A stretch of DNA of 64,000 nucleotides from NCBI GenBank assembly GCA_964596395.1, contig CAZQSY010000004.1:9008-73007 (forward strand), in the 5' to 3' direction. Below are positions 1-45,262 of this stretch, in pieces; position 1 is the stretch's first letter; the number at the start of each line of letters is the position of its first letter. A program made the position numbers and the translations under genes. The notes under the pieces are model-generated. The model searched no databases. It was not told the DNA's origin and saw only the letters and a program-made list of their open reading frames with translations. The stretch comes from an uncultured Candidatus Saccharibacteria bacterium (GTDB lineage Bacteria; Patescibacteriota; Minisyncoccia; Phycocordibacterales; UBA9973).

Positions 1-868
1 CGGGTACAGCCAAGGGCAGGGCGGATTCGGCGGCTTTGATTTTTCGGGTTTTCAAAACGGCGGAGTTGAGTTTGACTTTGGCAACCTAAACGATATTTTC
101 AGCGATTTCTTCGGCGGGGGAATGGCTAGAGGAGAAAGAGGCGCGAGACGTGGGCGGGATATATCTACTGAAATGCAGATTTCTTTTCAGGAATCGGTTT
201 TCGGCGTTACGCGGAAAATTTTAATTACTAAAATGTCGCAATGTTTTACCTGTGGCGGCTCTGGCGCGAAGGCCGGAACCAAGACGGAAAAATGCAAATA
301 TTGCAACGGGCAAGGCAAGATACGGGAGGCCAAGAGGACGATACTGGGCACTATTTCTAGCACGAAAATTTGCGAGGAATGTCTGGGGGCCGGCGAAGTG
401 CCGAAAGAAAAGTGCGATGCCTGTAAAGGCAGGGGCGTCCTGCGCCGGGAAGAAGAAATCACGGTAAATATACCGGCTGGCATTCGCGATGGAGAAATGA
501 TACGCATGGGAGGTATGGGCGAAGCGGTGCAGAAAGGCACCCCGGGAGACCTGTACATAAAAATCAACGTGGCTCCGCATTCTATTTTCAAGCGGGACGG
601 CAGCGATTTGATAATGAATCTTGAATTAAAGCTCTCCGACGCCCTCTTGGGGACTGAATACTCGATTCAAACGCTGGACGGGGAAATAAAAGTAAAAATC
701 CCGGAAGGTGTTTCGGTAAACGAAATCCTGCGCGTGAAAGGCAAAGGGGTGCCTGTATCAAAGAGCAGGCGCGGCGACCTTTTAATAAAACTAAAAATAA
801 AATTACCAAACAAACTTTCCCGCAAAGGAAAAGAGTTGATCGAAAAGCTCAAAGAAGAGGGAGTGTAG
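1..868 (+). CDS. dnaJ: Chaperone DnaJ, 5'-truncated at the window edge (G/F-rich region, 4x CxxCxGxG zinc finger, C-terminal domains)
   Basis: The frame is open from nt 2 and reads GYSQGQGGFGGFDFSGFQ... (G/F region). Four CxxCxG(x)G repeats and a DnaJ C-terminal domain follow. The ORF-track ATG at 122 is internal. Confidence 0.85.
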   Translation, partial: GYSQGQGGFGGFDFSGFQNGGVEFDFGNLNDIFSDFFGGGMARGERGARRGRDISTEMQISFQESVFGVTRKILITKMSQCFTCGGSGAKAGTKTEKCKYCNGQGKIREAKRTILGTISSTKICEECLGAGEVPKEKCDACKGRGVLRREEEITVNIPAGIRDGEMIRMGGMGEAVQKGTPGDLYIKINVAPHSIFKRDGSDLIMNLELKLSDALLGTEYSIQTLDGEIKVKIPEGVSVNEILRVKGKGVPVSKSRRGDLLIKLKIKLPNKLSRKGKELIEKLKEEGV

Positions 869-2436: not shown

Positions 2437-3780
2437 TTATATTTTATTTATTCTTTGACCTTGAGAAGTATCCTTCACATCATACCCCAAAGAATTTATT
2501 TTTTTTCTAAGCTCATCTGATTTTTTAAAATCCTTGTTTCTGCGCGCTTCCTCCCGCTCTTCCGCGATTTTTTTCACCTCTTCCGGGATTTCTTCTTTTT
2601 TCAGGTTCTCGAAGCCCAAGCCGAAGACTTTGTCAAAATCAAGAATGGTTGCTTTCTTGTCCGAGTTTGAGAAACCATTGTCTTTAACCAGATCCCAGAG
2701 CAGGGCGAGGGCCCGTGGAGTGTCTAAATCATCTTCCAGTAACGTTTTAAATTTGAGTTGATAATCTGTATTTACTTGCCCAGTTTCATCGCCTAGGCCT
2801 AAAAATGCGCTTTGGAGCCGTCTTAGGGCAGAATCCGCTCCCCTCAGTGCTTCTTCGTTGAAATTCATAGGGGAGCGGTAGTGAGTCATTAACACCCATA
2901 GGCGAAAAGCCTTCGGTGATATTCCAGATTCTTGTATGTCCCGGATAGTTTTAAAATTTCCCAAGCTCTTGGACATTTTTTTTGAGTCAATATTGAGGAA
3001 TCCTGTATGTGTCCAATAGCGCACAAGGGGTTCCAGGCCGGAGGCCGACTCCATTTGCGCAATTTCACATTCATGGTGGGGAAAAATAAGGTCAATTGCT
3101 CCGCCGTGGATATCGTACTGCGGGCCGAATTTCGTTTCGGTGATTGCCGTATCTTCTATGTGCCAGCCCGGCCGGCCTTTACCAAATGGGGAATCCCACG
3201 ATGGTTCGCCGGGTTTTTCCGCCTTCCATAAGCAGAAATCATTCCATCCGCGTTTTTCCCTCGCCTCATCTACCCGCGAGATAGAATCATCTTCTTTTAG
3301 TTCTGTCCGTCCAGAAAGTTTGCCGTAATCTTTGAATTTCGCCGTTTCAAAATAAATACCGTCAGCGATTTTGTACGCGTAGCCTTTCCCCGAGAGAACC
3401 TCCACTTGTTTGATTATTTCCGTAATAAAATCAGTCGCCCGCGCATATTCGTTTACCGCGTCATTGCCGAGTGTCGTCATGTCTTCTTTGTATGCTTGCT
3501 CAAATTTCTCCGCGAGTTCTTTCCATGGCATCTCCCGTTCACGGGCGCGGTTGATTATTTTGTCGTCAATATCAGTAATATTTTGCAAGTAGAAAACATC
3601 GTAACCGAGATAACGCAAAACTTTTGCCAGCACGTCAAATTGCGTATAGGTTTTACCGTGCCCTAGGTGGGGAAAATCGTAAACAGTCGGGCCGCACACA
3701 AAAAAGTTCACCCTTTTTTCTTTTAACGGCACGAATTCCTCTTTTTTTCTCGTCAGGGTATTGTAAAGTTTTAAAGACAT
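2437..3780 (-). CDS. cysS: Cysteinyl-tRNA synthetase
   Basis: HIGH motif (PHLGHGKTY) and KMSKS motif present. Length 447 aa is typical. Confidence 0.9.
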   Translation of the reverse strand: MSLKLYNTLTRKKEEFVPLKEKRVNFFVCGPTVYDFPHLGHGKTYTQFDVLAKVLRYLGYDVFYLQNITDIDDKIINRAREREMPWKELAEKFEQAYKEDMTTLGNDAVNEYARATDFITEIIKQVEVLSGKGYAYKIADGIYFETAKFKDYGKLSGRTELKEDDSISRVDEAREKRGWNDFCLWKAEKPGEPSWDSPFGKGRPGWHIEDTAITETKFGPQYDIHGGAIDLIFPHHECEIAQMESASGLEPLVRYWTHTGFLNIDSKKMSKSLGNFKTIRDIQESGISPKAFRLWVLMTHYRSPMNFNEEALRGADSALRRLQSAFLGLGDETGQVNTDYQLKFKTLLEDDLDTPRALALLWDLVKDNGFSNSDKKATILDFDKVFGLGFENLKKEEIPEEVKKIAEEREEARRNKDFKKSDELRKKINSLGYDVKDTSQGQRINKI

Positions 3781-3790
3781 AAAAGATTCA

Positions 3791-3834
3791 AAACACAGGG
3801 TAGTCCTGTGTATACACAGGACTACCCTGTGTTT
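3791..3834. repeat. Family-E nested palindrome, intergenic copy between AI-2E transporter gene and cysS
   Basis: aaacacagggtagtcctgtgta|tacacaggactaccctgtgttt: perfect 22-bp inverted arms, each arm itself palindromic. Confidence 0.7.
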
Positions 3835-7062: not shown

Positions 7063-7095
7063 CCCTGTCGCTCGCGAGAGACGGGGTTTACTGCC
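7063..7095. terminator. Bidirectional hairpin terminator between convergent rplU and recR (family D hairpin ccctgtcgctcgcgagagacgggg followed by T-run)
   Basis: Perfect stem ccctgtcgctcg/cgagagacgggg followed by ttt, immediately after the rplU stop. The same hairpin recurs inside tRNA-like pseudogenes at 26213 and 26621. Confidence 0.6.
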
Positions 7096-10269: not shown

Positions 10270-10490
10270 ATATAGCTGTGTTATTATCAATTTGTAAGCC
10301 GTTGAGCCGGATGACACCGGGGAGGTAAAGAAAGAAAGCCGAAAGGCAAGGCCTTTCGGTAAGTAGAATCTTTCGGGTATGCCCGTTACAGCTGTAGAAA
10401 AGCAAAAAGTAGGGTGGCACCGCGACACAAAAATCGCCCCTGCAAATTTATCAATTTAATGGTAAGTTTGGAGAGGCGATTTTTGTTTTC
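10270..10490 (+). promoter_or_regulatory. T-box riboswitch leader controlling aspS (T-box motif, antiterminator/terminator)
   Basis: Near-consensus T-box sequence aagtAGGGTGGCACCGCGac at 10408-10426. Intrinsic terminator aatcgcc...ggcgatttttgtttt at 10432-10489. Long-range stem I agctgt...acagct. A GAC codon at 10313-10315 is a possible Asp specifier. Confidence 0.75.
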
Positions 10491-13800: not shown

Positions 13801-16379
13801 GATAGATAGGTGTGAATATCCCTTTTGTCTCTCTTCAGCCACAATATATTGCTTTCGAGTTTTTCTATGACTTGCTCTACGGCTCGCTCGGCGCCGGGGG
13901 CGGGATGGGTTCTGAAGAATTTCTTGAATTTGCGCAAGTGCCTTTCTTCGGCGCTTCCGGAAATCGCTTTCATAAATCTGGAGAGCGTGTGTCCGCCTTC
14001 GCCGTACCTCGTGACGAAAGTTTTCCAGTTCCGGGTGATGCATTTGAGCCATGCGTCTCGGCCGAGGGGATTCATTCCGACAGAGGATATTATTCCGGAA
14101 GTATCCTGCGGGCGCACGTGCGAAGACAGCGAAAATTGTGCGGCTTTTCTAAGGATTTCCGGGGAAGAGAAGTTGCCTAAAGCGGCGCCGATCCTGTTTC
14201 TTTCTTCATGCAGCGCTTCTTTTTTGTACATTTTTATAAGCTCTTCATATTCTTTGATTCCGCCGGATTTCGCTACGATGCCGTAAATTGGAGCGCGCAG
14301 GTCCGGGTCAACCCTTTTGCCTTTTTTAATTTTTGCAAAAAGATTTTTGGCTTTTAAAATTGTTTTTTCGTCGCCGGCTTGGCCTAATATTTCTATACAA
14401 AGGGGCCGAAGCATTGAATCAGAAGGGGGTTCGTTTTTTTTCTTACTCCACCCGAGGCGGCGAAAAACAGGGGAGAACAAGCTGATAATTAAACCATCGA
14501 GATTCGCTTCGCTTCCGGTTTTGCAAAAAATTTGCTTGATTCCCCTTATGCCCAGAGCTATCGCGTGCAGGACGGAATAATCACTCTCTCTTTTATACGC
14601 TTTTAAAAATTTCAGAGCTTCGCTCGTTCTTCCGTCGCCAGATTCGGCAAGCGCGAAGAGGTCCCTTATGATTCCCAGGCGGTCCCGCGCGGAGATTTTT
14701 TTATCCCGTACCGGCTTTGCTAATCTGTCGAGCATTTTTTTGGAATAGGCGACTCTGAAAAATCCGCTTTCGCCCGCGTTTATTTTTACAAACTCGGGCT
14801 TGGAGGCCTTGCCTCCAAGCGGAGGCAAGGCCTCCAAGCTCAACTTAGTACTCTGGCTACTAAGCAGTATTTTTGCAGTATTTTTGCCGTCTCCGAAAAC
14901 AATCGGCGTTTGCCAAATTATTTTGTCTTTGTTTTTTCTTTTGGAAATTGGGCTTGAGAAAAATCTGCCCTGCGAAAGATATAAACTTTCACCCTTTATT
15001 TCTGTCTTTATGACCGGGTACCCGGGTTTGGCAGTCCAGTTTTGCATTATTTTTTTTACCGGTTTTCCCGAGATTTTTTCAAATGCTTGCCAGAGGTGCG
15101 CGGTTTCGGTGTTTTTATAGCTATGTTTTTTCAAGTAATAGCGCAGACCGTCTCGAAAATCTTTTTCTCCCAGATATTCGGCCAGCATTCTGATAATACA
15201 GGCGCCTTTTGAATACGATACCTCGTCGAAGATTTCGCCGATTTCGTCGGGGTGATGCACTTTCACTTCTACCGGATGTGTGTTGGCCAATGAATCCAAA
15301 CGGAGTGCTACTCCTAAATCCTGCACCGAAAATTGTGTCCACATATTCCATTCAGGGAAGACCTTTTCCAGCGCCAAATATTCCATATATGAGGCGAATC
15401 CTTCGTTGAGCCACAGGTGTGTCCACCACTCCATAGTCACTAGGTTGCCGAACCACTGGTGGGCAATTTCATGTGCCACGACCAAAGCCACTCTCTGTTT
15501 GTTTGTGAGCGAGGAATTTTTTTCGTCAAAAAGCAGGGCGCTTTCGCGGTAGGTAATGGCGCCCCAGTTTTCCATGGCGCCGGCGGCAAAATCCGGGACA
15601 GCTATCATATCAAGCACGGGCAGGGGGTACTTGATATCAAAATATTTTTCGTAAAAATCCAGCATTTTGGCGGCGCAAGAAAGCGCGAACCCTGCCTGAT
15701 GCTTTTTCTCGGGATGCGTAAAGACGCGCACCGCGACCCCCCGTCTGGTTTTTGTCTGGAGCATATCAAAATCTCCCACAATGAAGGCCAGGAGGTAAGT
15801 GGACATTTTCGGCGTGGGAGAAAATCTTACAATGTCAAAGCCTGCCTCGTGCTCTTTTATTGAAACCGGCAAGGTATTAGAAATCGCCGTTTTGCCTTTT
15901 TCCACCACCAGTGATACCTTGAACACGGCTCTGTGTGCTGGTTCGTCGAAACAAGGGAAAGCCCGGCGCGCGTCGGTGGCTTCGAATTGGGTAGTGGCCA
16001 TGTGGCGTTCTTTGCCGTAAAGCATATACCGGCTGCGATAGAAGCCCCGCATTTTGTCGTTCAGTATGCCTTGAAATATCAACCGTAATTTGGCCGTGCC
16101 AGCTGGTATTTTTTTAGAAAATACAAAAGTCGCGGTTTCCCTTTTTTCGTCGTAAGAAATTTTTTCGGCGAAAAGTTTTTCTGCCAATACCGTGATGCTT
16201 GCCGTCTCAATGTCTATTTCTTTGCTGTGCAGGGTTATCTCCTTTGTCGGCTTCAAGATTTTTATTTTTATCTCCTCTTCGCCTTTGAAGGTGAAGTTCA
16301 GAAGGTCCGGATGCAATTTCAAATCGTACTCCGAGGGGATTATAGACGAGTCAAGTTTTGCGGATTTTTTTTTCTGCAT
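13785..16379 (-). CDS. pepN: Aminopeptidase N (M1 family metallopeptidase)
   Basis: HEIAHQWFGNLVT...WLNEGFA zinc-binding motif and GAMEN-like GAMENWG. Confidence 0.9.
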   Translation of the reverse strand: MQKKKSAKLDSSIIPSEYDLKLHPDLLNFTFKGEEEIKIKILKPTKEITLHSKEIDIETASITVLAEKLFAEKISYDEKRETATFVFSKKIPAGTAKLRLIFQGILNDKMRGFYRSRYMLYGKERHMATTQFEATDARRAFPCFDEPAHRAVFKVSLVVEKGKTAISNTLPVSIKEHEAGFDIVRFSPTPKMSTYLLAFIVGDFDMLQTKTRRGVAVRVFTHPEKKHQAGFALSCAAKMLDFYEKYFDIKYPLPVLDMIAVPDFAAGAMENWGAITYRESALLFDEKNSSLTNKQRVALVVAHEIAHQWFGNLVTMEWWTHLWLNEGFASYMEYLALEKVFPEWNMWTQFSVQDLGVALRLDSLANTHPVEVKVHHPDEIGEIFDEVSYSKGACIIRMLAEYLGEKDFRDGLRYYLKKHSYKNTETAHLWQAFEKISGKPVKKIMQNWTAKPGYPVIKTEIKGESLYLSQGRFFSSPISKRKNKDKIIWQTPIVFGDGKNTAKILLSSQSTKLSLEALPPLGGKASKPEFVKINAGESGFFRVAYSKKMLDRLAKPVRDKKISARDRLGIIRDLFALAESGDGRTSEALKFLKAYKRESDYSVLHAIALGIRGIKQIFCKTGSEANLDGLIISLFSPVFRRLGWSKKKNEPPSDSMLRPLCIEILGQAGDEKTILKAKNLFAKIKKGKRVDPDLRAPIYGIVAKSGGIKEYEELIKMYKKEALHEERNRIGAALGNFSSPEILRKAAQFSLSSHVRPQDTSGIISSVGMNPLGRDAWLKCITRNWKTFVTRYGEGGHTLSRFMKAISGSAEERHLRKFKKFFRTHPAPGAERAVEQVIEKLESNILWLKRDKRDIHTYLSTLVD

Positions 16380-18351: not shown

Positions 18352-19106
18352 TGGAAACCGAAACATATCAAATAAAAACCCGTGATTTTGAGGGGCCGTT
18401 TCATCTCTTACTCTCGCTTATTCAGGAGAAGAAATTTTTTATCAACGACCTTTCGCTTTCACAAATAACCGAGGATTATCTCAACTACATAAAGCAAATC
18501 GGCGAGATTGATACCCGGCAGGTTTCCGGCTTTGTCGCCGTGGCGGCTACGCTGATTCTGATAAAATCCAAATCGCTACTGCCTTCGCTTAATCTTTCGG
18601 CGGAAGAGGAAGGAGACATCAAAAATCTGGAAGACCGGCTGAAGCTGTATGAATTTTATACCGAGCTCTCGGCGGGCGTGAAAAAGATTTTCGGCAAAAG
18701 AATGATTTTCGCCCCGCTTCCGCGGAAAAACGCTTTCTCTATGTTCATGCCCGACCAGAAAATTACCAGGGAAAACATGGCGAGCATAATCTTGGAGGTT
18801 TTGGGCAGGGTTCCGAAAAAAGAATTTCTTCCCGAAGTGGAGGTGAAAAAAGTCATCAGTTTAGAGGAAATGATTTCGAAGCTTTCAGAAAGAATAGAAA
18901 AAAGTTTGGAATTTAATTTCAAAGATTTTGCCTGCCTGCCGGCAGGCAGGCCGGGTCAATCCATAACGAAAGAAGAAAAGGTGGTTGTAATTATCAGTTT
19001 TCTTGCTATGCTAGAACTCGTGAGACAAGGTTTGCTTCACGTTACCCAGAGTGAGAATTTCGAAGATATCATTATTCAAAAACAACAAAATGGAACTCCA
19101 GCATAA
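18351..19106 (+). CDS. scpA: Segregation and condensation protein A
   Basis: FEGPFHLLLSLIQ N-terminus typical of ScpA. Carries an in-frame copy of the 20-bp palindrome CCTGCCTGCCGGCAGGCAGG at 18931-18950. Confidence 0.8.
   Translation: METETYQIKTRDFEGPFHLLLSLIQEKKFFINDLSLSQITEDYLNYIKQIGEIDTRQVSGFVAVAATLILIKSKSLLPSLNLSAEEEGDIKNLEDRLKLYEFYTELSAGVKKIFGKRMIFAPLPRKNAFSMFMPDQKITRENMASIILEVLGRVPKKEFLPEVEVKKVISLEEMISKLSERIEKSLEFNFKDFACLPAGRPGQSITKEEKVVVIISFLAMLELVRQGLLHVTQSENFEDIIIQKQQNGTPA
18931..18950. repeat. Family-C 20-bp perfect palindrome CCTGCCTGCCGGCAGGCAGG (copy inside scpA, in frame)
   Basis: Identical 20-mer at 22291-22310. Close variants at 44726-44743 and 34514-34534. Confidence 0.7.
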
Positions 19107-22280: not shown

Positions 22281-22330
22281 TTCTCTAATTCCTGCCTGCC
22301 GGCAGGCAGGCGCGCGAATAGGCGAATAAG
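22281..22330. repeat. 28-mer repeat tctctaattc|gcgcgaataggcgaata interrupted by a family-C palindrome insertion
   Basis: The uninterrupted copy at 1463-1492 reads tctctaattcgcgcgaataggcgaata. Here the same sequence carries ctgcctgccggcaggcagg inserted after tctctaattc. Confidence 0.65.
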
Positions 22331-25994: not shown

Positions 25995-26177
25995 CCTGTT
26001 TCTTTTGCCTCTTTTTTGTGCTATATATAAAGCGCAGCCGAGACCGGTTGCGGGTTCTTTTAGTTCGGAATTTCTTTGCTTAAGTGGAAATTCCGTCAGG
26101 CGCGATTTCTTTTTCGTTTTTGCGCCTGTATGTTTCCGCCCGCGTTTTGATACCGGTTTAAAGTGTGGGCGGAGCAT

Positions 26178-26276
26178 GGGCCTATTGTTCTGTGGTAGAA
26201 TAGCGGTCTCCACCCCGTCGCTCGCGAGCGACAGGGTCCAAGACCGTTGCCGGAAGTTCGATTCCTCCACGGCCCA
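26178..26276 (+). pseudogene. Degenerate tRNA-Trp-like sequence with a 24-nt hairpin inserted in the anticodon loop, directly abutting the GIY-YIG ORF start
   Basis: D-arm gttc/tgtggta/gaat, anticodon stem gcggt + loop ctcca(hairpin ccccgtcgctcgcgagcgacaggg)..accgt, T-arm ggaag-TTCGATT-cctcc. Acceptor pairs only 5/7. Ends 2 nt before the ATG at 26279. Confidence 0.5.
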
Positions 26277-26278
26277 CA

Positions 26279-26538
26279 TGTTTTATGTTTACGTTTTGAA
26301 GAGTAAGAAAGACAATAAGCTGTATTTCGGGTATACTGCTGACCTGAAAAAACGTTTATCTGAACACAAGAGAGGGAACGTAGAAAATACTAGCCATAGA
26401 TTGCCCGTTGAGCTTGTTTATTACGAATCTTATAGAAATATAGATGATGCGAAGGAGCGGGAAAAGAGTTTCAAAAATAGCGGTTCTGTGTATAATGGAT
26501 TGGTAAAAAGAATTAAGAGAAGTATGATGGGAGCTTAG
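26279..26538 (+). CDS. Small GIY-YIG nuclease (COG2827/UPF0213-type URI-domain protein)
   Basis: MFYVYVLKS...KLYFGYTADLKKRLSEHKRG matches the GIY-YIG core. Paralogous to 44802..45059. The TAG stop lies inside the 5' end of tRNA-Trp. Confidence 0.75.
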
Positions 26539-26602
26539 TTAAGTGGTATAACTGCGGTCTCCAAAACCGCGGTCAAGGGTCCGATTCCCTTAGCTCCCGC
26601 CA
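26529..26602 (+). tRNA. tRNA-Trp (anticodon CCA), CCA encoded
   Basis: Acceptor gggagct/agctccc, D-arm gtta-agtggta-taac, anticodon stem gcggt/accgc with loop cTCCAaa, T-arm aaggg/ccctt, discriminator g then cca. Overlaps the last 10 nt of the GIY-YIG ORF. Confidence 0.8.
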
Positions 26603-26690
26603 GAGACATTTAGGTCTCCACCCCGTCGTTCGCGAACGACGGGGTCCAAAACCGCGGTCAAGGGTCCGATTCCCTCATCGCCCGCTAGAT
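26603..26690 (+). pseudogene. Partial duplicate of the tRNA-Trp 3' portion carrying the same anticodon-loop hairpin
   Basis: aggtctcca + hairpin ccccgtcgttcgcgaacgacgggg + tccaaaaccgcggtcaagggtccgattccct... matches the tRNA-Trp 3' half with altered acceptor. No 5' half present. Confidence 0.5.
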
Positions 26691-26710: not shown

Positions 26711-27202
26711 ATGCATGACAGGGTTTTAAATTCAAGGGGGAATTCAGGTTTCTGGAATGTTAATTCCAATGAATTATACGACGCCGCAAAAATTCTTTGG
26801 AATTGTTGGACAATGAACAACCCAATGACAGCAAAAAATCCACTGAGAAAGAAAATAGGAGAAAAAATTCATCGATTTCATTGGATAACTATGATGCTAC
26901 TGAGCTTGAGTTTGGAAACTCTCTTAAAAGGAAAAATTATAAAAAATGAACCTCTTTTAATAACAGACAAAAAATTTCCTCTAGAAACCCATAATCTTGT
27001 TTTTTTATTTAAAAAGGCAGACATTATTTTTAATGATGATGAAGAATTATTTTTAAAACGACTCACGAATTCAGTAGAATGGATAGGAAAATATCCAATA
27101 CCAAATAAATCAGAAAGTTTTAATTCAAACAACACAACTAGGAGAGAGGAAGATTTCAATCTTTTTGAAGAGTTAAGACAAAGAATTCAAAAAAGCCACT
27201 GA
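26711..27202 (+). CDS. Hypothetical protein (AT-rich, possibly foreign)
   Basis: 163-aa ORF with much lower GC than its neighbours and no recognisable motif. Confidence 0.35.
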   Translation: MHDRVLNSRGNSGFWNVNSNELYDAAKILWNCWTMNNPMTAKNPLRKKIGEKIHRFHWITMMLLSLSLETLLKGKIIKNEPLLITDKKFPLETHNLVFLFKKADIIFNDDEELFLKRLTNSVEWIGKYPIPNKSESFNSNNTTRREEDFNLFEELRQRIQKSH

Positions 27203-44715: not shown

Positions 44716-44790
44716 TGGGAGATCGCCTGCCTGCGCAGGCAGGTCTAACGGTAGTCACCTCATCGGCGACCCGCCGAAAAGGCGGGGACA
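44716..44790 (+). pseudogene. tRNA 5' fragment (acceptor 5' strand + D-arm) interrupted by a family-C palindrome and followed by a 36-nt double-hairpin element
   Basis: tgggagatcg[cctgcctgcgcaggcagg]tctaacggtag parallels the tRNA-Gln start tgggagatcgtctaatggtag. It is followed by tcacctcatcggcgacccgccgaaaaggcggggaca, which is repeated at 45178-45213. Confidence 0.5.
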
Positions 44791-44801
44791 AAGATTAATC
44801 C

Positions 44802-45059
44802 ATGTATTATACTTACATATTACAAAGTTTAAAAAACGAACGAATGTATGTTGGAAGTACAGATGATTTAAAAAGAAGAGTTTCTGAGCACAATTCAGGT
44901 ATAGGTGGCTTGTATACCAAAAACAATCGACCCTTTAAGTTAATATACTACGAAGCGTACATTGAGAAAAAAGACGCAAGTCGGGCAGAAAAGTTTTACA
45001 AAACAGGATACGGTAGAGAAGTTTTGAATGGTAAATTAGAGGATTATTTGAAAAAATGA
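44802..45059 (+). CDS. Small GIY-YIG nuclease (COG2827/UPF0213-type URI-domain protein)
   Basis: MYYTYILQSLKNERMYVGSTDDLKRRVSEHN matches the GIY-YIG core. Paralog of 26279..26538. Ends 17 nt before tRNA-Gln. Confidence 0.75.
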   Translation: MYYTYILQSLKNERMYVGSTDDLKRRVSEHNSGIGGLYTKNNRPFKLIYYEAYIEKKDASRAEKFYKTGYGREVLNGKLEDYLKK

Positions 45060-45075
45060 TGTTCGCGAGCAGTGC

Positions 45076-45146
45076 TGGGAGATCGTCTAATGGTAGGACT
45101 CCTCCCTTTGAAGGAGGCTATCTTGGTTCGAATCCAAGTCTCCCAG
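45076..45146 (+). tRNA. tRNA-Gln (anticodon TTG) embedded in a 14-bp perfect extension of the acceptor helix
   Basis: Acceptor tgggaga/tctccca, D-arm gtct-aatggta-ggac, anticodon stem cctcc/ggagg with loop cTTTGaa, T-arm cttgg-TTCGAAT-ccaag. Flanks ttcgcgagcagtgc (45062-75) and gcactgctcgcgaa (45146-59) are exact reverse complements. Confidence 0.8.
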
Positions 45147-45173
45147 CACTGCTCGCGAATTAAAAATTTTTAA

Positions 45174-45262
45174 GTGGTAGTCGCCTCATCGGCGACCCGC
45201 CGAAAAGGCGGGGACAGTGGCCTTTGAAGCCATTAATTTTGGTTCGAATCCAAATCTCCCAG
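45174..45262 (+). pseudogene. tRNA 3' fragment (D-loop remnant + 36-nt element + anticodon arm TTG + T-arm + acceptor 3' strand)
   Basis: gtggtag + tcgcctcatcggcgacccgccgaaaaggcggggaca + gtggc-cTTTGaa-gccat + tttgg-TTCGAAT-ccaaa + tctccca g. The 5' acceptor strand and D-stem are absent here but present in the 44716-44790 fragment. Confidence 0.5.

Follow-up and report, generated by a model that had tools for sequence, protein, structure and literature searches.

A GIY-YIG nuclease gene joined to tRNA genes and flanked by hairpin-marked dead tRNAs in Patescibacteria: a candidate selfish module

Why would a working tRNA gene share its 5' end with the gene for a nuclease, and why would dead versions of the same tRNA lie on either side of the pair? 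These questions are raised by positions 26178-26690 of a 64,000-nucleotide stretch of DNA, hereafter the window, from an uncultured Candidatus Saccharibacteria bacterium (NCBI GenBank assembly GCA_964596395.1, contig CAZQSY010000004.1, positions 9,008 to 73,007 of the forward strand). At this locus an open reading frame (ORF) for a small GIY-YIG protein is set among tRNA-Trp sequences, and a comparable arrangement surrounds a tRNA-Gln gene farther along the window. Comparison with relatives leads us to regard the arrangement as probably a selfish GIY-YIG nuclease/tRNA module, widespread in Patescibacteria (the candidate phyla radiation, CPR), that would be maintained by break-induced recombination. 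As predicted from sequence, the module is a gene for a nuclease of about 85 amino acids, comprising the catalytic domain only, that lies directly 5' of a working tRNA gene and often overlaps it; dead copies or fragments of the same tRNA around it carry a clade-specific, GC-rich palindrome in a loop position. The element looks like a repeated replacer of tRNA genes.

On the plus strand of the Trp locus, a terminator-like hairpin (26033-26052) succeeds the end of an L33-like ORF, and then come a tRNA-Trp-like copy, a single nucleotide, the GIY-YIG ORF, a canonical tRNA-Trp(CCA), a 10-nucleotide linker, and a 5'-truncated tRNA-Trp copy. All four parts named in the original prediction, which had been made from the letters of the DNA (a pseudo-tRNA, an 86-amino acid GIY-YIG ORF, a tRNA-Trp, and a partial copy), were found where it had placed them, with the correction that the gap between the tRNA-like copy and the ATG is 1 nucleotide rather than 2. 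The ORF (26278-26538, plus strand) encodes a stand-alone protein of 86 amino acids that matches Pfam PF01541 with an E-value of 1.9e-15. Its TAG stop codon (26536-26538) does lie within the tRNA, as had been noted, and is made of tRNA nucleotides U8-A9-G10, giving an overlap of 10 nucleotides between the two genes. The tRNA-Trp(CCA) itself (26529-26602, plus strand) looks functional: it is called by ARAGORN, scores 63 bits against Rfam, has an acceptor of the GGGAGCT type, and carries an encoded CCA.

The full-length copy upstream of the ORF (26178-26276, plus strand) appears to be dead. It combines a 5' half of acceptor type GGGCCTA, a palindrome in the anticodon loop, termed H, and a degenerate 3' half, and it was delineated with Rfam, with ARAGORN allowing introns, and by folding. 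The Rfam tRNA model aligns to it end to end (model positions 1-71) at 27.6 bits (E-value 0.0015 in a local search), a score below the gathering score of RF00005 (29 bits), and the alignment assigns a 32-nucleotide insert to the anticodon loop; ARAGORN reads the same copy as tRNA-Trp(CCA) with a 28-nucleotide insert. The minimum free energy fold is a cloverleaf with an extended anticodon arm (-44.4 kcal/mol, z -4.1), with five of seven acceptor pairs and four of five T-stem pairs formed, which leaves two mismatches in the acceptor and one in the T stem. Between ...GGTCTCCA and TCCAAGACC..., the inserted palindrome reads CCCCGTCGCTCGCGAGCGACAGGG and contains a single C.A mismatch; H as delimited here (26212-26237, no strand assigned) reads ACCCCGTCGCTCGCGAGCGACAGGGT and is bordered in the dead anticodon loop by CTCC(A) and (T)CCAAGACC. 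A group I or archaeal-type tRNA intron was considered for this insert and rejected, as Rfam scans gave no ribozyme or intron match, the insert is only 28-32 nucleotides long, the host copy is degenerate, and a complete intact tRNA follows the ORF.

Downstream of the functional tRNA, a 5'-truncated dead remnant (26613-26686, plus strand), recognized by BLAST against the local tRNA and by inspection, is composed of GGTCTCCA, a perfect H (26620-26645), and a 3' half. Within it, 26645-26675 is 100% identical to tRNA positions 32-62 and is succeeded by a differing acceptor strand, CATCGCCCGC, in agreement with the partial 3'-half copy, hairpin, and altered acceptor strand described earlier. The perfect hairpin attributed to both copies is accurate for this remnant but not for the upstream copy, with its C.A mismatch. 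Covariance models, proposed as a check on both flanks, were likewise divided in their outcome: the upstream copy aligned over its whole length, below threshold, and a search of 26603-26690 returned no tRNA match. The acceptor strand of the remnant, ATCGCCC, comes from a third tRNA-Trp type (GGGCGAT), so that three types (GGGCCTA dead, GGGAGCT live, and ATCGCCC in the remnant) are present at one locus, and more than one event is therefore implied. Downstream remnants of the same kind are found in six of the related loci, which are denoted here by L numbers (L001, L003, L093, L099, L104, and L109). In the 125 nucleotides between the terminator of the rpmG-like gene and the pseudo-tRNA (26053-26177), three additional inverted repeats were observed (GGAATTTC.../...GAAATTCC; CAGGCGC.../...GCGCCTG; TCCGCCC.../...GGGCGGA), and a small GC hairpin stands 4-5 nucleotides 5' of the pseudo-tRNA start, as it also does in L084, L098, L106, and L109.

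The same architecture had been said to recur 18 kb away with a different tRNA. The logic is indeed repeated there (44716-45262), with a second GIY-YIG ORF of 85 amino acids (44802-45059, plus strand; 182 homologues) whose product aligns with the Trp-locus protein at 42% identity, in line with the proposed paralogy of the two. The upstream piece, however, is only a 5' fragment and not the full-length pseudo-tRNA claimed for it, comprising the acceptor and D arm with three hairpins. This upstream remnant (44716-44801, plus strand; inspection and folding) runs from tRNA-Gln nucleotides 1-10 through a D-loop palindrome, CCTGCCTGCGCAGGCAGG, the remaining D arm, a hairpin pair, TCACCTCATCGGCGA / CCCGCCGAAAAGGCGGGG, and a further 14 nucleotides to the ATG; the hairpin pair is also found 5' of the ORF in L114 and L124. 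The functional tRNA-Gln(TTG) (45076-45147; ARAGORN, Rfam, and folding) lies inside a 14-bp helix (45062-45159, plus strand), TTCGCGAGCAGTGC / GCACTGCTCGCGAA, which extends its acceptor stem (fold -60.2 kcal/mol, z -9.0). Extensions of the tRNA-Gln stem occur elsewhere with other sequences, of 6 bp in L114 (CACAGC/GCTGTG) and 9 bp in L124 (GCGACGAGC/GCTCGTCGC), and could serve as a processing stem of the RNase III type or be one of the element's inverted repeats. The Gln architecture as a whole recurs at 86% and 80% protein identity; the hairpin pair is again the same, and the helix enclosing the functional tRNA covaries. No further GIY-YIG copies were found in the window beyond these two, and its other tRNA genes (Arg, Leu) are without any. 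A palindrome of the same family as the Gln D-loop hairpin (44726-44743), CCTGCCTGCCGGCAGGCAGG, was also observed at 18929-18951 and 22291-22310, one copy possibly within a coding region and the other intergenic.

The remnant downstream of tRNA-Gln (45176-45262, plus strand) gives a partial Rfam tRNA match of 23.7 bits over model positions 10-63 and consists of GGTAG, the same hairpin pair, an anticodon arm (TTG), a T arm, and the acceptor strand TCTCCCA, with 96% identity to tRNA positions 48-72. As TCTCCCA pairs with TGGGAGA of the upstream remnant, the two pieces can be read as one resident tRNA-Gln split by a unit made of the ORF and a new tRNA-Gln; a 41-nucleotide direct repeat is present at both junctions of the split. 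Resident tRNAs divided in this way, with upstream 5' and downstream 3' halves that pair, are also found in L093, L104, and L109. Pairing of split halves in several loci would be expected of a miniature integrative element, in which a circle of ORF, tRNA, and one hairpin recombines at the hairpin-bearing anticodon region. The direct repeats that should result, GGTCTCCA-H-TCCAAAACC at Trp or GGTAG with the hairpin pair at Gln, occur on both sides, and inserts of ~350-450 bp with direct repeats of 41-45 nucleotides that include the hairpins are seen in both window loci as well as in L001, L093, L104, L109, and L114. Nevertheless, such an insert contains only the 86-amino acid ORF and the tRNA, with no recombinase or integrase gene, GIY-YIG enzymes are hydrolytic nucleases, a hairpin-bearing target tRNA would already be nonfunctional, and the downstream repeat is absent from most loci, making this reading very unlikely. 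The integrative elements that target tRNA genes, among them genomic islands and prophages, share with the module flanking direct repeats of part of the tRNA and regeneration of an intact tRNA. The module differs from them in the absence of an integrase, in the small size of its insert, and in that the duplicated part is usually the 5' rather than the 3' part of the tRNA, so that the tRNA promoter would drive the insert.

How far the association extends beyond the window was addressed by a scan of one genome per species, which returned 80 loci. A tRNA on the same strand starts between -22 and +60 nucleotides from the ORF stop in 30 of the 80 (Trp in 12, Ala in 9, Cys in 2, and Leu, Val, Glu, Lys, Phe, Pro, and Arg in one each), as against 0.15-0.73 loci expected (P <= 3e-40). 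Where ORF-to-tRNA junctions could be compared, 21 of 52 overlap, and in 16 of 52, with Trp, Cys, and Lys tRNAs, the TAG stop is formed by U8-A9-G10, which are nearly universal in tRNAs. The suggestion that the two window loci reflect a propagating unit rather than coincidence thus gains considerably from the abutment of 30 loci on tRNAs of at least 10 amino acid identities; it is further borne out by the presence of the ORF in 27 of 32 loci retrieved by the hairpin, and by the swapping of dead and functional roles among tRNA-Trp types, both described below. The architecture was found in more than 60 independent contigs, a recurrence that rules out an assembly artifact or chance as its source. 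In the literature on GIY-YIG proteins with tRNA in CPR, no description of a tRNA association was found; the only pertinent papers were a survey of rRNA insertions and a study of phage SegB, both taken up below.

The contexts of the remaining relatives are varied, although in most of them the ORF stands between inverted repeats. About 40 of 82 related ORFs are bracketed by a GC-rich inverted repeat of 13-24 nucleotides, compared with 8 nucleotides in shuffled controls. The repeat has the form (TT)ACCCC[CT]CAC.../...GTG[AG]GGGGT(AA), its left arm ending 1-20 nucleotides 5' of the ATG and its right arm starting at or near the stop, so that the ORF would sit in the loop of a long stem or between transposon-like ends. 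Loci of this type include L007, L014, L016, L017, L028, L029, L044, L048, L049, L051, L054, L062, L063, L069, L079, L080, and others, with the ORF at about position 3001 in most. For both window ORFs the best bracketing inverted repeat is 8 nucleotides, equal to that of the shuffled controls; a long flanking stem, of 14 bp, is present around tRNA-Gln itself. Other family members lie within large subunit (LSU) rRNA (L008 3001-3297, L050 1358-1612, and L055 3001-3297, where Rfam LSU matches span the ORFs), and in L047 a member at 1518-1745 overlaps the 5' end of the bacterial RNase P RNA gene. Locus L087 holds three GIY-YIG ORFs in 3.4 kb (524-709, minus strand; 2794-3045 and 3167-3367, plus strand), one of them 5' of tRNA-Trp, one 42 nucleotides 3' of tRNA-Trp, and one 18 nucleotides 5' of tRNA-Asn on the other strand.

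Insertions in rRNA genes provide a point of comparison. A survey of such insertions in CPR (Tsurumaki et al. 2024, PMC11270868) reports GIY-YIG ORFs in insertions that do not belong to the group I or group II introns; it never mentions tRNA genes and regards GIY-YIG as sparse and outside homing (PMC11270868). The modules resemble these insertions, and the ORF-bearing intervening sequences of 23S rRNA, in that the same protein family is found in LSU rRNA and that many copies lie inside an inverted-repeat stem. Unlike them, an insertion at a tRNA gene comes with duplication, partial or full, by which an intact tRNA is restored, and the two window ORFs are without an enclosing inverted repeat.

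Dead tRNA copies with hairpins are usual in the family. They were surveyed by BLAST of each adjacent tRNA against its own flanks together with sequence inspection; ARAGORN with relaxed thresholds and introns allowed found the window pseudo-tRNA and gave too many spurious calls for use across the loci. The 5' half of the tRNA is duplicated ahead of the ORF at Trp, Cys, and Glu loci, with a GC-rich hairpin directly after the duplicate; the duplicate often matches functional tRNA positions 1-35/36 at 100% identity. At Ala, Val, and Phe loci only nucleotides 1-11/14 are repeated, matching the local tRNA, and are followed by the left inverted repeat. Dead and functional tRNA-Trp 5' halves were then compared in 26 loci. 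Six acceptor types were seen (GGGAGCT, GGGTCCA, GGGCGAT, GGGTGGT, GGGCCTA, and GGGTCTG/GGGCCTG), each of which is dead in some loci and functional in others, with GGGCCTA functional only in L002, a locus outside the 26-locus table. Cyclic cases occur: AGCT is dead and TCCA live in L087, TCCA is dead and CGAT live in L084, and CGAT is dead and AGCT live in L095. In nine loci the dead and functional 5' halves are identical. A single ancestral tandem duplication followed by vertical decay was rejected as the sole explanation, the dead and functional tRNA-Trp types being intermixed and not reciprocally monophyletic. Two derivatives without the ORF still carry remnants, L091 with a remnant and hairpin followed by a promoter and tRNA, and L099 with a tRNA followed by a hairpin-bearing remnant.

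The proteins encoded by these modules belong to the GIY-YIG superfamily, with Pfam PF01541 scores of 57.3 and 66.2 bits for the two window ORFs against a cut-off of 22.6. The domain occupies residues 1-72 of the 85-86, and the catalytic-type residues Y3, Y5, Y16, G18, R26, H30, E50, and E62 are invariant in a profile of 20 homologues. The Trp-locus protein has 522 homologues, at up to 91% identity, nearly all in metagenome bins of Patescibacteria/CPR. Compared with the PDB, the profile finds the UPF0213 proteins BH0048 (1zg2, 2e-11) and EF2693 (1ywl, 6.7e-09), and the window proteins agree with the UPF0213 type in their single domain, in a length of ~85-107 amino acids, which BH0048 and EF2693 share, and in similarity to those two proteins. 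We know of no report that places UPF0213 proteins in a tRNA-linked or repeat-linked context. Scores against the curated homing-endonuclease family TIGR01453 are subthreshold (20.7 and 28.4 bits, cut-off 56). Searches of PADLOC, PHROGs, and NCBIfam likewise assigned the proteins to no defense system or curated family, giving only weak homing-endonuclease hints (phrog_5123, E-value 8e-4; PADLOC HEase, E-value 0.004).

Within the Trp clade, the median ratio of nonsynonymous to synonymous divergence (dN/dS) is 0.115 at a median dS of about 1.8, which is saturated; for the window protein and that of L095, dN is 0.089 and dS 1.81. These values indicate that the protein is under strong purifying selection and that the nuclease has therefore been kept functional over long times. 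With dS saturated, neutrality cannot account for how little H and the junctions vary, and the selection data fit an active selfish element with a cognate cis site. Strong purifying selection at saturated dS would also be expected if the ORF were a long-resident neighbor of the tRNA that benefits the host, for example a repair or maintenance nuclease, with the remnants as ordinary by-products of recombination between tRNA repeats. Such a gene would explain why the position upstream of tRNA-Trp is stable in more than 40 loci, would likely be cotranscribed with an essential tRNA, and has as its nearest solved relatives the chromosomal UPF0213 proteins, to which no function is assigned. It is harder to reconcile with the several paralogues per genome at different tRNAs (two in the window, three in L087), the copies within rRNA, those at RNase P RNA, and those that inverted repeats enclose in intergenic DNA, the existence of ORF-less loci, the swapping of roles by tRNA alleles, and the lack of a match to any defense or other functional family in the searches above. 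On this balance a beneficial resident seems unlikely.

The palindrome is the feature by which the modules can be recognized independently of the protein. In the Trp clade the hairpin H is ACCCCGTCGYTCGCGARCGACGGGGT, immediately 3' of the anticodon, and it occupies the same position in L001, L002, L005, L006, and L012, loci retrieved without bias from the window; L003 has it downstream only, and L004 has it within the D loop. In a sister clade with both Trp and Cys loci, tRNA positions 38-55 are replaced by CCCCGCC...TCGCGA...GGCGGGG, and in general the type of hairpin or repeat tracks the protein clade. Searching metagenome contigs for H in its anticodon-loop context, with eight stem positions left free, gave 32 loci, of which 27 have a same-strand GIY-YIG ORF within ~120 nucleotides; two of the five others are cut off by the edge of their contig. 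At the free positions the bases covary, with complementarity kept in 30-31 of 34 copies and five complementary variants seen, so that the palindrome is maintained through compensatory changes. Additional palindromes are common in the D, anticodon, or T loops of dead copies (L001, L012, L093, L095, L100, L104, and L114). In the window the H motif has three matches, against none in 100 shuffles. The one outside tRNA is a solo family member at 7063-7086 (no strand assigned), CCCTGTCGCTCGCGAGAGACGGGG, a putative terminator that lies directly after the stop of an L21-like ORF and is followed by TTT, not by a long T run; its two mismatches to H support, at the level of sequence, the hairpin kinship proposed for it. 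Other copies outside tRNAs are an H-family hairpin at +1393 in L004 and, in L112 (4070-4115), a GGTCTCCA-H-TCCAA stretch in frame within a riboflavin-kinase-like ORF on the minus strand, far from tRNA and GIY-YIG genes.

H is by these data a dispersed, multicopy, conserved palindrome, and the only protein consistently near it is the GIY-YIG protein, no systematic transposase search having been made among the other window ORFs. Its dispersal makes it conceivable, if doubtful, that the palindromes are an independent family like the repetitive extragenic palindromic (REP) sequences or miniature inverted-repeat transposable elements (MITEs), colonizing the loops of redundant tRNA copies. The GIY-YIG protein would then mobilize or recognize them in the manner of a REP-associated tyrosine transposase (RAYT), and the dead tRNAs would be tolerant sinks. 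The H copies outside tRNAs (7063, L004, and L112), the two further copies of the Gln D-loop palindrome (18929 and 22291), and the gathering of extra hairpins in dead copies all agree with this, as do the tracking of protein clade by hairpin type, the conservation of sequence despite saturated dS, and the ACCCC...GGGGT termini that H shares with the inverted repeats bracketing ORFs elsewhere. By itself, however, such a family explains neither the fusion of the ORF to the 5' ends of functional tRNAs nor allele turnover. GIY-YIG enzymes have no known strand-transfer chemistry, only three H copies occur in 64 kb, and the tRNA-derived flanks of the L112 copy (GGTCTCCA/TCCAA) suggest copying from a remnant rather than free transposition. 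The module is like REP/RAYT and MITE-like repeats in having short, conserved, GC-rich palindromes in several copies per genome, of a type matched to the nearby nuclease clade. It is unlike REP/RAYT systems in that the protein is a GIY-YIG enzyme and not a Y1 transposase, copy number is low, and the position in the tRNA loop is highly specific. Three options remain for the palindrome, as the recognition site of a dimeric nuclease, as a collapsed pair of inverted repeats, or as a REP-like passenger of redundant tRNA copies; most likely it is the cognate cis element of the nuclease or a collapsed pair of the family's inverted repeats.

The closest precedent for a selfish nuclease/tRNA module is found in phages. 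SegB is a protein of about 220 amino acids with a DNA-binding region. It is a free-standing GIY-YIG homing endonuclease encoded by T-even phages within their cluster of tRNA genes (Brok-Volchanskaya 2008, cited in PMC13096335, 2026) that cuts inside tRNA genes and tolerates a C-terminal truncation of 28 amino acids (PMC13096335). SegB-dependent homologous recombination yields tandem [tRNA + segB] units, joined where the 5' end of the tRNA is homologous to the 3' end of segB; neighboring tRNA genes are coinherited, and SegB homologues are frequently associated with tRNAs (PMC13096335). As with SegB, the GIY-YIG gene of the module adjoins tRNA genes, in 30 of 80 loci, and these would be its putative target. 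SegB is a larger, phage protein; those described here are of ~85 amino acids, cellular (on CPR chromosomes), of the UPF0213 type, and below threshold in homing-endonuclease models. Nor have SegB loci been described with hairpin-marked dead tRNAs or with a stop codon inside the tRNA. On grounds of sequence and domain content, the module is not a member of the SegB family and is best filed as a cellular, minimal, tRNA-nested form of the free-standing GIY-YIG selfish elements, with conserved palindromes and serial replacement of tRNA alleles.

A mechanism modeled on SegB can be proposed for the module. The nuclease would break the DNA of a tRNA gene, and recombinational repair between tRNA repeats would duplicate or replace tRNA segments. 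With a module-bearing allele or a sister copy as the repair template, the ORF would be copied together with the 5' part of the tRNA or with the whole tRNA, so that the nuclease gene and a functional tRNA would be inherited as a unit. Superseded alleles, that is, the recipient's own parts, would stay behind as flanking, hairpin-marked remnants. These steps would account for the clade-specific lengths of the duplications (11-14 or 36-43 nucleotides), for the match of the upstream fragment to the local tRNA, for the difference between dead and functional 5' halves where donor and recipient differ, and for the tight fusion of ORF and tRNA.

Several observations weigh against such a selfish module. 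With 85-86 amino acids and no separate sequence-specific DNA-binding domain, the protein leaves target specificity unexplained. Self-immunity is also unexplained, as the anticodon-loop sequence broken up in the dead copies is intact in the functional tRNA. At the window Trp locus, the remnants on the two sides do not pair with each other, so that several successive events must be assumed. Saturated dS and old, conserved ORFs also fit a long-resident or domesticated gene, and every Trp module stands at an apparent native tRNA-Trp locus. Finally, a look-up of the exact protein of the neighboring ddl gene recovered no clean empty site in a close relative. It gave one other contig, L113 (Logan contig SRR15237813_64128), which ends ~400 nucleotides after ddl within the pseudo-tRNA/hairpin region; repeated tRNA and hairpin sequences probably break short-read assemblies.

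A further question is how an ORF abutted so closely by tRNA or tRNA-like structures, 1 nucleotide upstream and with a 10-nucleotide overlap downstream, could be expressed. In relatives, a -10-like box, read by eye, lies just before the 5' end of the upstream fragment, so that a displaced tRNA promoter would likely transcribe remnant, ORF, and tRNA as one transcript. A scan for consensus promoters upstream of the pseudo-tRNA in the window gave none that was convincing. Wherever ORF and tRNA overlap, an RNase P cut at the 5' end of the tRNA would leave the mRNA without its stop codon, and this loss may limit expression of the nuclease.

The original prediction went further in supposing that the architecture exists for tRNA punctuation, with RNase Z cutting after the discriminator and RNase P at the tRNA 5' end to release a leaderless GIY-YIG mRNA. 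Of this supposition, the part that stands concerns a subclade of seven loci (the window, L084, L092, L098, L105, L106, and L109), in which a full-length, hairpin-bearing tRNA-like copy places its discriminator 1-2 nucleotides before the ATG and RNase Z could make a leaderless AUG. The T stems of these seven copies covary (cggag/ctccg, tggag/ctcca, tgggg/cccca), acceptor pairing is 7/7 in four of them, and their 3' halves are closer to each other than to the local tRNA. An RNase Z-made 5'-terminal AUG would suit the organism, as Shine-Dalgarno motifs are rare in the window (six of 41 long ORFs), with none upstream of either GIY-YIG ORF, and -10-like hexamers peak 7-9 nucleotides before window ATGs. 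A count of TAnnnT hexamers before 55 window ORFs of at least 150 amino acids found the last base 7-9 nucleotides before the ATG in 16 and 17-19 nucleotides before it in 13; the pattern suggests that mRNAs with no leader or a very short one are widespread in this organism.

The part that fails concerns most of the relatives. In at least 17 Trp-clade loci neither a T arm nor a 3' acceptor strand lies upstream, only the 5' half, the hairpin, TCCAAAACC, and 2-25 nucleotides before the ATG, and these parts are missing as well before the ATG of Gln, Ala, Val, Cys, and Glu loci. The window copy is degenerate, with its incomplete acceptor and T-stem pairing and subthreshold Rfam score, RNase P would strip the stop codon at the 21 overlapping junctions of 52, and the constant spacing could be mere inheritance within one subclade. 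Mitochondrial tRNA punctuation provides a partial likeness, with an ORF between tRNA or tRNA-like structures, 0-1 untranslated nucleotides, and mRNA ends that RNase P and RNase Z would set. The differences are that this is a bacterial chromosome, that the upstream tRNA is dead, that the feature is limited to a subclade, and that the stop codon lies inside the downstream tRNA. As the reason for the architecture, punctuation is a doubtful proposition, since most relatives and the Gln, Ala, Cys, and Glu modules have no upstream T arm or acceptor strand; at best it is the expression mode of one subclade, and as such it is compatible with a selfish nuclease/tRNA module.

A broader and more tentative proposal unites these contexts. 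The modules could belong to an unrecognized class of minimal mobile element, in which an 85-amino acid nuclease, consisting of the catalytic domain only, with a cognate GC-rich palindrome or inverted repeat would attack hairpin-forming DNA at loop positions in genes for structured RNAs (the D, anticodon, and T loops of tRNAs, helices of rRNA, and RNase P RNA), force tRNA duplication or replacement, and drive serial allele turnover across Patescibacteria, with one subclade co-opting a dead tRNA as an RNase Z signal for a leaderless mRNA. Even the narrower reading as a selfish tRNA-replacing module, if true, would provide a cellular counterpart of the phage SegB-tRNA modules and would mean that selfish nucleases shape tRNA gene content and sequence in streamlined CPR genomes, which have few redundant tRNA genes. 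It would explain the pseudo- and partial tRNAs that confuse CPR annotation, as well as assembly breaks such as that of the ddl contig, and would place the GIY-YIG insertions known from CPR rRNA genes in a wider family that has a recognizable cis element. The compact nuclease and its conserved 26-nucleotide palindrome form a pair readily testable for structure- or sequence-specific cleavage. Through the U8-A9-G10 stop and the possible RNase Z-made leaderless start, maturation of mRNA and of tRNA would compete for one transcript.

Some features of the window lie outside these themes. An ORF of 163 amino acids (26711-27202, plus strand) stands directly 3' of the Trp module. A T-box-leader-like match at 10293-10444 (plus strand) scores 47.6 bits (E-value 2.4e-07), well under the gathering score of 93. 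Long perfect hairpins that are unrelated to H occur at 3791-3834 and 14798-14839, with stems of 18 and 17 bp, respectively, and 8-nucleotide loops.

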